From NCBI GenBank assembly GCA_951406725.2, contig OX597818.1, positions 54,312,001 through 54,376,000 of the forward strand: a stretch of 64,000 bases of DNA, given 5' to 3'. The stretch is from Octopus vulgaris. Its lineage: Eukaryota. Below, piece by piece: positions 59,740 through 63,367 of this stretch. The notes under the pieces are model-generated. The model searched no databases, was not told the origin of the DNA, and saw only the letters and a program-made list of their open reading frames with translations. Numbering within the stretch: the stretch's first letter is position 1; every line of letters starts with the position of its first letter. A program made the position numbers and the translations under genes.

Positions 59740-60601
59740 GGTTGAGCGGAATATCTATAAAGCAGCCGAAATGTAGCAGTACAACTTTAAGCCGTGAAAT
59801 ATTGTTGCAAAAATTGAGGAACGGAAAATAGCGATATATTACCTCGGTTTTTCCCTTTGTTCAGCTCAGAAATAGCGGTTAAATTGATCCTGATGTTGCG
59901 GATAACACATGCGATTATTCAAAAAATATTAATTAATATAAGATAAGAATATGTAGGATAAAAGATGTAGTTTGATGAACGTACTCCTGGGTTTAATCAA
60001 TATTTAAATGCTGAGATCAGTTGATAATTAAGCAAATGTCCACATAGAACTTGATACTAAAAAGACAGTCCGCTGAGTGTCAATTTCACTGACGATGGGC
60101 GTGATTCTACAATAGTCACTCAACGCAAGACTACTTCTGCGTCTTATTTATTTTCTATGCTATATATATGATATTATCTGTGTCATATGTTATGCTTCAA
60201 TAATCATGGTTACGTATGAACCAATGAGAGATGACAAGGAAGTTTTCTATGCAATTTCCAAGAAAGAAATAACACAAATATTTTCTGAGAAAACGATATA
60301 AAATCAGTTCTAGATTTTTGTTCAGTCATATAACGAAACTGAACACACACACACACACTCACACACATATTTATCTCTTTATATAGATATGTACATATAT
60401 AACATACACACACATACACACACACACACACACACACACACACTCACACACGCACGCATACTTATCTCTTTATATAGATATGTACATATATAACATACAC
60501 ACACAAGAACACAAGCACAGACACACACACAGGTGCACACACACACACACATACACACAGCCGCACACACACACATACACACATACATACCTCAAGCGTT
60601 G

Positions 60602-62012
60602 CTCAAACGATCTATGTACTTGTGATATTTTTCTGTATTTACCTCCAAACCTTCGTGGGCTGTCTGGAGTAAACATTATCTGAGAGAAATTTTCTTTAAG
60701 TAGTACAAATGCTAAGAAAATTTTTTTTGGCTGCTATTTCTACTAAGTTCAGTATGTGGCAAAGTAATTTATTTTACTAAGCCCTAATTATATAATGTAA
60801 AATTTTGAATTCGCCTTAAATGGTCCTTTTACATACTGAACACTTGGTGAAATTGATTAATTAATTAGTTTTACCCTCAATTGTTGATATTATAATTCAT
60901 TTCTCTCGGTCATACTGCATCGGTTCTCGCGGTTAAAATATAATGTTTGCTAGATAGACCACGTGGGTGGAAGGGGATTGAAGAAATTTACGCCTGCGCA
61001 TTTTGAATTTGTTGACACTGTTAGTTGGAGTGGTTCATCTGAAGTGATAAGTTCGCTGATAGGTAAAGTTCCTTCTTTTTAGTGTTGCCAAATCCAAATT
61101 AAGAAATTTTGAGCTGACGATAGAAATGCTGATTTTATTTGGCTAATCTTGAAACGTTGACGTACTCAAAGGATCTATGTACTTGTGATATTTTTCTGTA
61201 CTTACCTCCAAACCTTCGTGGGCTGTCTGGAGTAAACATTATCTGAGAGAAATTTTCTTTAAGTAGTAGAAATGCTAAGAAAATTTTTTTGGCTGCTATT
61301 TCTACTAAGTTCAGTATGTGGCAAAGTAATTTATTTTACTAAGCCCTAATTATATAATGTAAAATTTTGAATTCGCCTTAAATGATCCTTTTACATACTG
61401 AACACTTGGTGAAATTGATTAATTAATTAGTTTTACCCTCAATTGTTGATATTATAATTCATTTCTCTCGGTCATACTGCCTCGGTTCTCGCGGTTAAAA
61501 TATAATGTTTGCTAGATAGACCACGTGGGTGGAAGGGGATTGAAGAAATTTACGCCTGCGCATTTTGAATTTGTTGACACTGTTAGTTGGAGTGGTTCAT
61601 CTGAAGCGATAAGTTCGCTGATAGGTAAAGTTCCTTCTTTTTAGTGTTGCCAAATCCAAATTAAGAAATTTTGAGCTGACGATAGAAATGCTGATTTTAT
61701 TTGGCTAATCTTGAAACGTTGACGTACTCAAAGGATCTATGTACTTGTGATATTTTTCTGTACTTACCTCCAAACCTTCGTGGGCTGTCTGGAGTAAACA
61801 TTATCTGAGAGAAATTTTCTTTAAGTAGTAGAAATGCTAAGAAAATTTTTTTTGGCTGCTATTTCTACTAAGTTCAGTATGTGGCAAAGTAATTTATTTT
61901 ACTAAGCCCTAATTATATAATGTAAAATTTTGAATTCGCCATAAATGGTCCTTTTACATACTGAACACTTGGTGAAATTGATTAATTAATTAGTTTTACC
62001 CTCAATTGTTGA
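60602..62012 (+). mobile_element. 2.5 tandem copies of a ~562-bp retrozyme-like unit, related to the 546-bp array
   Basis: Unit starts at 60602, 61165 and 61727; ends ccctcaattgttga|(TA)n. Confidence 0.92.
61108..61170 (+). ncRNA. Type I hammerhead, canonical core
   Basis: tttgag-CTGACGA-t-aga...tct-t-GAAA-cg-ttga-cg-TA-ctcaaa; second copy at 61670-61732. Confidence 0.85.
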
Positions 62013-63367
62013 TATATATATACATATATATATATATATATATATATATATATATATATATATATATATATATATATATATATATATATATATATATATA
62101 TATATATATATATATATATATATATATATATATATATATACGCAAATAAGAAAATGAAGGCGATTATTATTATTATTATTATCTTTTTTATTATACCAAT
62201 AAAAAAGATGAGGACAAAATAACGAAAAAAGATGTTCATGTTTACAATGTAATTTTATTATAAGTCCAATGGACAACAATTGAACAAGGAAATAATAGTT
62301 TCTGCCATTAATATTAAGAAGTAAAATCAAATTACCAATGTTTTCAGTTCTCTGTCATATGTTACTGAATAAATTTTGATGAACATAAAAACAATATTAC
62401 AATCAAACAAAATAAGTTCTCAGAAAAGAACTGAAAACGGAGAAGTAGAAATATCAAGGTTATATATATATATGTGTGTGTGTGTGTGTGTGTGTGTGTG
62501 CGTTTGTGTGTGTGCCATTAGTATTAAGATTAAACCGAATAATGAATGTTATACTTTTACAGCATTCTAATTATTTCAGCGAAAATGTTCGTAAAGGCAA
62601 AGATTTAGTAAAGTAGCAGAGTTTAGTAAATTTCATGTTTTATCAGTGTTATAATGGAAACTTTGCAAAGTCGTGTTATCATCCTCAACAGTAGAATGAT
62701 AAGTTTACAAAGGACCGGCTGCAAGGCTCACTCTCAAATATTACAGGAAATAAATGTTGATGTACGCAAAAAATATTACTATTAAAAAAAATACCAAGTT
62801 CTGACAACAGAACAGTAAACGGGGAAAAAAGCTTATGTATGTATGTATGTATGTATGTATGTGTGTATGTATGTATGTATGTATGTATGTATGTATATAT
62901 GTATGTATGTATGTATGTATGTATGGATGTATGCATGTACGTATGTATGTATGTATGTATGTATGTATGTATGTATGTATGCATGTATGTATGCATGCAT
63001 GCATGCATGCATGTATATATGTATACATGCATGTATGTATGTATGTTTGTATGTATGTATGTATGCATGTATGTATGTACGTATGTATGTATACATGCAT
63101 GTATATATGTATTTATGTATGCATGTATGTATGTATGTATGTATGTGTGCATGCATGTATACAAACATTAATAGCGATAGAATATATGGTTATTGACATT
63201 TTATCTTTTTTAGGCATTTTTGGCATTAGAATTTCTTTTTGCCCTTGCTTATAAGTTGCTTTGATATATATATATATATATATATATATATATATATATA
63301 TATATATATATATATATATATATATGAATTGAGGGGAGATTGGGATAACGTATATTAAACGAAGATT

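Follow-up and report, generated by a model that had tools for sequence, protein, structure and literature searches.

We consider it probable that the array at positions 60602-62015 of the window (the whole stretch of 64,000 nucleotides of Octopus vulgaris DNA that was analysed) is a retrozyme insertion, that its fixed 3' end at a (TA)n microsatellite is likely the work of a Penelope-like reverse transcriptase, and that its start at a predicted ribozyme cut site likely arose by a later deletion. The first-pass annotation had read this start as indirect evidence of ribozyme cleavage in vivo; as a genomic proof of cleavage this headline claim fails, and the locus illustrates how a tidy junction can be a later deletion. 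Its observation on the 3' end is real and points to Penelope-type priming.

The array consists of 2.5 head-to-tail copies, about 99% alike, of a 562-bp non-coding unit, followed by (TA)n up to 62140. Unit 1 (60602-61164, plus strand) is 563 bp long and 98.8% identical to unit 2 (61165-61726, plus strand, 562 bp), which is the reference for all unit positions given here; the partial unit 3 (61727-62015, plus strand) covers unit 1-288. The 562-bp unit has 1434 candidate places in the 2.8-Gb genome, 40 of which were scored. All 103 distinct 562-bp-unit loci that were parsed are partial tandems or inverted arms; they are dispersed, have no LTR-like structure and reach up to 3.6 units in the longest array seen. 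None of the listed holders of the unit is recorded as RNA; contigs of four presumed-RNA runs cover parts of the unit, a kind of evidence that cannot show ends, strand or level. The combination by which retrozymes are recognised, non-coding tandem units with at least two consecutive complete predicted hammerheads, is present, with two motifs 562 bp apart, and the window array fits a non-LTR retrozyme, one more member of a known animal group. Elsewhere in the window, a 184-bp unit is present in 4.5 tandem copies (14111-14944), which we take to be a piece of a cephalopod SINE.

A type I hammerhead fold, with the core and helices I-III, is predicted from the sequence at each unit junction, at 61108-61170 and at 61670-61732 (plus strand), in the order CUGACGA...GAAA...GUA|CUC, with a stem I of 6 bp and a stem III of 2 bp closed by a tetraloop. 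The cuts previously predicted for the internal copies, before 61165 and 61727, coincide with GTA|CTC at 61164/61165 and 61726/61727. Core letters deviate in 8 of 2002 cells of the family units. Across six related families of this genome 88.7% of the helix cells are paired, and two-sided changes affect 6 of the 12 helix pairs, which was reached by none of 500 shuffles; the structure was drawn from the same sequences as this covariation count, which favours the structure. The loop of stem II is long, and its first pair is U.U in the window versus A-U in 120 of 149 family units. In the window, no Rfam match reached the gathering score, and no hammerhead was found among 12 matches at E ≤ 10. Free folding favours a different shape (-9.9 versus -8.5 kcal/mol, a gap of 1.4 kcal/mol; z -0.42). 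Four older relatives, 77-88% alike (L109, L177, L184 and L104), have the region of unit 120-290 in common; their hammerhead has GUU or GUC as cleavage triplet, and in this comparison the first stem II pair is C.A or U.U in five of the six aligned sequences. A hammerhead pattern search, in which the first GAAA was taken, missed the two main families and was used as a lead only.

The window array ends at unit 284-288 (62011-62015), and its final ATAT is common to the array and to the (TA)n target (62012-62140). It was observed that 79 of 165 3' ends in the family lie, like this one, at unit 280-294 (site B), 74 at unit 186-208 (site A) and 12 elsewhere, and that TA runs adjoin 150 of them. The fixed 3' end first described is therefore borne out at site B; the second fixed site, A (unit ~194), had been overlooked. 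In the window, the inferred start of reverse transcription of the arm would be site B (unit 284-288, 62011-62015, plus strand), and site A (unit ~187-198, 61914-61921, plus strand) is unused by this arm. Among 62 head-to-head insertions, 50 combine A with B, one B with B and none A with A, and 11 have another end; A+B thus accounts for 50 of the 51 classifiable two-armed pairs.

The 3' end had also been equated with the point near 9218 where a related 545/546-bp array meets (TA)n, and the two positions are indeed equivalent. What that comparison overlooked is that the array is head-to-head: an inverted arm (9218-11005, minus strand) has its 3' end at site B and its 5' end at unit 141, and a direct arm (11019-12939, plus strand) has its 5' end at unit 457 and its 3' end at site A (~12939). 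A third hammerhead family was also observed at 57833-58838 (minus strand), where 1.8 copies of a 555-bp unit, 99.6% alike, end in (TA)n; an empty paralogous site of this insertion, at about 63264-63330, has a pre-existing (TA)n, and a few bases were lost at the 5' join. Arrays of 10-13 units of the 545/546-bp family were seen at L147-L159 (G000:C1:71.597-71.604 Mb) and L267, one of them bounded by N runs; they greatly exceed the 3.6 units of the longest 562-bp array and are possibly a local expansion.

As first proposed, reverse transcription would be primed at an existing (TA)n, starting from a set position within the unit; this agrees with the 153 of 165 ends at A or B and with the (TA)n found at four empty paralogous sites, where it predates the insertion. 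The proposal that an internal AT motif serves as primer site stands in part. Sites A and B each resemble TA over 4-8 letters, but the motif alone is insufficient: none of the 165 3' ends lies at the TATA/ATAT words of unit 24 and 336-337, so the choice of site seems to depend on the place in the RNA and not just on the motif. The two sites fall within and behind the region of a long predicted hairpin, in which one compensating pair was seen by eye. Two fixed 3' ends, a tail at one end, head-to-head arms and a microsatellite target, which together characterise Penelope-like insertions, were all found here.

At the 5' side, homology to the unit was confirmed to start at 60602, with 0 bases of identity further upstream. 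The statement that the array begins exactly at the cut site did not hold. CTCA at 60602-60605 belongs to the host letters and to unit positions 1-4 alike, a 4-nt microhomology, and as host identity to a neighbouring duplicate (the sister, see below) reaches 60605, the breakpoint may be anywhere in unit 1-5. The letters at 60590-60605 (plus strand) are host DNA, the remnant of an older dispersed repeat that continues into host sequence in all eight paralogs and has 79-91% matches at 33 other places among the matches listed. Three explanations of the 12-nt 'leader' that precedes the array, all as reverse-transcriptase filler, were considered: renewed copying of the unit start, a switch to the end of the unit in which 5 nt were lost, and re-priming at site B (10 of 12 letters match); all were dropped, as the leader is host DNA.

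The locus belongs to a segmental duplication; its nearest neighbour in it, the sister (L320/L322), lies 1 kb beyond the window. Its left flank is as in the window and is followed, after CTCA, by 83 bp of extra host DNA and then by an array of unit 120-288, 99.4% identical, with its 5' end at unit 120 and the same 3' end as in the window; its (TA)n and right flank match the window copy. Window and sister have in common the 266G variant, which only 4 of 140 family units carry, and flank variants that are absent from seven further, empty paralogs. None of these seven contains a retrozyme; for four of them a right flank turned up within 10 kb, and there CTCA and the already-present (TA)n are 300-316 bp apart, the interval being made up of the older repeat. 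In all, at least nine segmental duplicates, 94-97% alike and in both orientations, were seen at G000:C5:54.37-54.52 Mb (L320, L322-L329, L342-L348), and window 56783-62215 is a duplicate shortened relative to the next copy.

A shared insertion with two different 5' junctions shows one insertion followed by segmental duplication, and since the window junction is without host DNA that the sister kept, it is most simply the later one. The 5' start in the window is thus most likely a later microhomology-mediated deletion at the 4-nt CTCA match, and not a primary cDNA end; the host letters before 60602 resemble the unit end at 9 of 12 positions, a likeness that would favour joining at CTCA. This order of events would follow from parsimony applied to the assembly alone. 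The sister duplicate would have lost whole units, and it may have regained host DNA through conversion. As a secondary junction of this kind, the start of the array gives no evidence of cleavage in vivo.

Ends of parsed loci were then compiled on the unit: 131 loci gave 106 distinct insertions, three duplicates being dropped. Also left out were segments that were below 90% identity or lay over 140 bp away from the main cluster, as well as a single 5' end truncated by a locus edge. The 171 5' ends are distributed evenly over the unit (chi-square p=0.26), and 7 of them, the window counted, are within 3 nt of the predicted cut versus 2.1 expected. A plot of the boundaries on the unit had been suggested as the check, with peaks expected at the cut site and at the TATA-like motifs; the 3' peaks appeared, at A and B, but the 5' ends showed the uniform distribution that had been named as speaking against the claim.

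Because the parsed loci had been picked by similarity or by the presence of the post-cut 21-mer, 5' ends were also counted genome-wide. The exact post-cut 21-mer occurs 405 times, and the window copy alone is not preceded by A. This search is biased because (TA)n ends in A, and was supplemented with further patterns. Those tolerating TA microhomology gave 8 more matches, 4 boundaries and 4 point changes; the pattern for ends between unit 542 and 20 gave 54 matches in 51 distinct rows, which are 11 point changes or indels and 40 ends (two placed by eye). These 40 ends comprise 25 at unit 2-20, 5 that are compatible with the cut and 10 at unit 543-560. An arm end occurs once per 347 nt, as estimated from 99 unselected passes on contigs 1-3, so that about 1.2 5' ends are expected per unit position. 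Besides the window, 5 cut-compatible ends were thus observed versus 3.5 expected (p=0.27), or 6 with the window (p=0.14), and 5' ends are not enriched at the scissile bond across the genome-wide copies. Ends are somewhat denser immediately downstream than immediately upstream of the cut (30 in 22 nt versus 10 in 18 nt, p=0.011), a step to which palindromic joins at unit 6-14 (four loci) and, at unit 12, matches to TA contribute. The cDNAs that extend as far as the cut site almost all read through it; a minority of templates, a few per cent, may be cleaved.

These data bear on the original reading of the locus, in which reverse transcription ended at the 5'-OH of a linear multimer that had cut itself, the cDNA was linked to host DNA at that point, and the junction records cleavage in vivo. 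Unit identity does begin at position 1, a run-off end could have joined through the CTCA microhomology, and slightly more 5' ends than expected lie at unit 561-20 (30 or 31 versus ~22). We nevertheless judge this reading very improbable. It is contradicted by the sister paralog, a copy of the same insertion in which the host flank is 83 bp longer and the array begins at unit 120, unless that copy regained host DNA by conversion; the letters CTCA are also host DNA, and the likeness of host and unit end would favour a deletion at this very point. Genome-wide, a single post-cut 21-mer of 405 lacks the preceding A, and the other five cut-compatible ends all show 2-3 nt of microhomology to TA or to the opposite arm.

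The arms of an insertion resemble each other closely. Divergence is 0.83% between opposite arms and 0.68% between tandem units, versus 2.15% between different loci. Over 14 polymorphic columns (7 noisy ones of 21 being excluded), 392 of 401 cells are identical between opposite arms, against an expectation of 115.5 mismatches. In addition, 16 locus-private variants in seven loci occur in both arms, and tandem units too have locus-private variants in common. Judged from these variant patterns, a circular template would best explain the matching arms; a young uniform multimer, sibling RNAs with a common source or post-insertion gene conversion might equally produce them. In the window, units 2 and 3 carry 7G and 37C, and unit 1 has neither, so that a single unchanged circle would be insufficient without later duplication or conversion. 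We tentatively propose, as a plausible reading that falls somewhat short of an even chance, that a Penelope-type complex reads one RNA circle of the retrozyme from two fixed start sites simultaneously, each end of the cut (TA)n using one, and passes through the re-ligated ribozyme junction. If this is true, A+B pairing together with the private variants shared between arms would be a genomic record of double priming on a circle, and the slightly raised number of 5' ends immediately past the cut would stem from a remaining few per cent of linear templates.

Alternatively, Penelope-type priming may occur on an uncut linear multimer, or on sibling RNAs of a uniform source, hammerhead cleavage being irrelevant to mobility. 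The cDNAs do pass through the cut site, and L122 has two haplotypes mixed within one arm. In the parts of published work that bear on this, hammerhead mutants of an anole Penelope-like element (PLE) are as proficient in insertion as the unmutated form, and the substrate is chiefly unprocessed RNA (PMC11167929), and eight of nine Xenopus retrozyme dimers were uncleaved in vitro (10.64898/2026.07.22.740005). Against this stand the hammerhead helices, kept by two-sided changes in six families and matched by 0 of 500 shuffles, and the locus-private variants common to tandem units. Moreover, without a circle, copying that truncates 5' ends would be expected to shorten the arrays at every round, and classical twin priming on one linear RNA predicts 5' ends of the B arm near A, which is not the rule. 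On balance, this alternative is rather unlikely.

Inverted arms might instead be formed by fold-back (self-priming) of one cDNA, with nuclease trimming of the A-B 'tail'. Such a process accounts for the shared haplotype and for A+B pairing, and self-priming and EN-mediated resolution are among the proposals made for PLEs in the sections of PMC3846280 and PMC8557442 that treat their insertions. Near-perfect palindromes were observed, both 5' ends lying within 12 nt of each other in 8 of 54 two-armed insertions (2.4 expected), and some inverted arms may be fold-backs. In 16 of 42 A+B insertions, however, neither arm is contained in the other, so that one arm is not a copy of the other and simple fold-back is not the rule; in vitro, as far as the text of PMC11167929 covers it, the two ends match two reverse-transcription start sites. 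As a general explanation of the arms, fold-back is improbable.

The genome contains candidate enzymes for such priming. A local young PLE family encodes RVT_1 and GIY-YIG domains; the GIY-YIG match misses the Pfam cut-off in the long frame but exceeds it in the L111 piece. Its targets are (TA)n, and of 20 head-to-head insertions 19 pair a short with a long end, 18 of these having been picked from the match list as pairs. A hammerhead-like motif with a U3-A8 core lies upstream of its ends, a core variant described in the part of PMC4209133 that deals with such motifs. Two PLE families were compared with the retrozyme unit, and neither shows extended homology to it in its 3' region, in a genome with 18,268 candidate GIY-YIG places. 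Intact Penelope-like frames of 750 aa are frequent at L300-L319, which indicates that this family was recently active; its internal tandem junctions run beyond the long end without TA likeness. Penelope-like fragments were also seen beside retrozyme arms (L107:861-1726, L111:1790-2197, L084:54-965), those of L111 and L084 head-to-head with the arm across a short TA run; these two probably nest in shared (TA)n targets. The fragment abutting the arm in L107 was considered as a partner and rejected, its 3' region being unrelated in the other 29 of 30 family loci.

The preferred sequence of events would thus be the following. A Penelope-type RT/GIY-YIG enzyme would cut (TA)n, and both DNA ends would prime cDNA, at A and B on one RNA, the template being probably a re-ligated circle and otherwise an uncut multimer. 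The cDNAs would stop at random and then be end-joined. At the window locus, the insertion was followed by segmental duplication, after which the window copy would have lost host DNA and part of a unit by microhomology-mediated deletion. The exact start sites (unit ~194 and ~288), the target and the test for a common template can be used in the existing in vitro Penelope assay. What is added here, the negative test of the cut site, the proof of the target from empty sites and the counts of ends, is of use, though limited.

That Penelope enzymes mobilise animal retrozymes, and that they do so from circles, has been proposed, and was not shown from insertion ends in the portions of PMC7229834 and 10.64898/2026.07.22.740005 concerned. 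Among titles and abstract openings of the open literature, no paper mapping retrozyme insertion ends was found; supplements (e.g. Fig. S9 of PMC7229834) may bear on this. As portrayed in the relevant passages of the same two reports, animal non-LTR retrozymes resemble the window family in several respects: their tandem units are non-coding, have a low GC content and carry one type I hammerhead apiece, stem I has 6 bp and stem III has 2 bp and a tetraloop, copies are dispersed as dimers to multimers, and PLEs occur in the same genome. The 562-bp unit is longer than the 150-450 bp given in Cervera and de la Pena 2020 (PMC7229834), and lies within the 51-972 bp given in Li, Clavereau and Pollet 2026 (10.64898/2026.07.22.740005), as far as those texts state sizes. 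Unlike known retrozymes, the window family has a long stem II loop, whose first pair is U.U in the window copy, and no Rfam match.

EN-bearing PLEs, as characterised in parts of PMC11167929, PMC8557442, PMC3846280 and PMC4209133, have AT-rich or (TA)n targets, 5' truncation and partial tandems as here; they likewise have head-to-head inverted arms, a one-ended 'tail', two internal starts and a type I hammerhead (predicted, in our case) upstream of the start points. Inverted arms, a one-ended tail and microsatellite targets figure as PLE marks in the descriptions of PMC8557442 and PMC3846280. For the anole PLE, the in vitro results covered in PMC11167929 are that both strands are cut and extended, with two internal starts that match the tail, and that hammerhead cleavage is dispensable, no reads ending at the cut. 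The window family differs from PLEs in having no ORF (coding content was assessed by a six-frame scan for frames of at least 130 aa, 60-residue starts being judged by eye) and no sequence homology to the 3' part of either PLE family with which it was compared. Its tail is also longer, ~94 nt versus 30-40 nt in such accounts of known PLEs as were available and ~47 and ~65 nt in two local PLE families.

In L1 twin priming, two DNA ends are primed on one RNA, which gives rise to an inverted 5' arm. The priming of two DNA ends on one RNA is likewise what we propose for the window family. L1 arms correspond to adjacent, non-overlapping parts of the RNA, whereas the arms of the window family start from fixed sites 94 nt apart and overlap; a few loci (L107, L115) do resemble classical twin priming.
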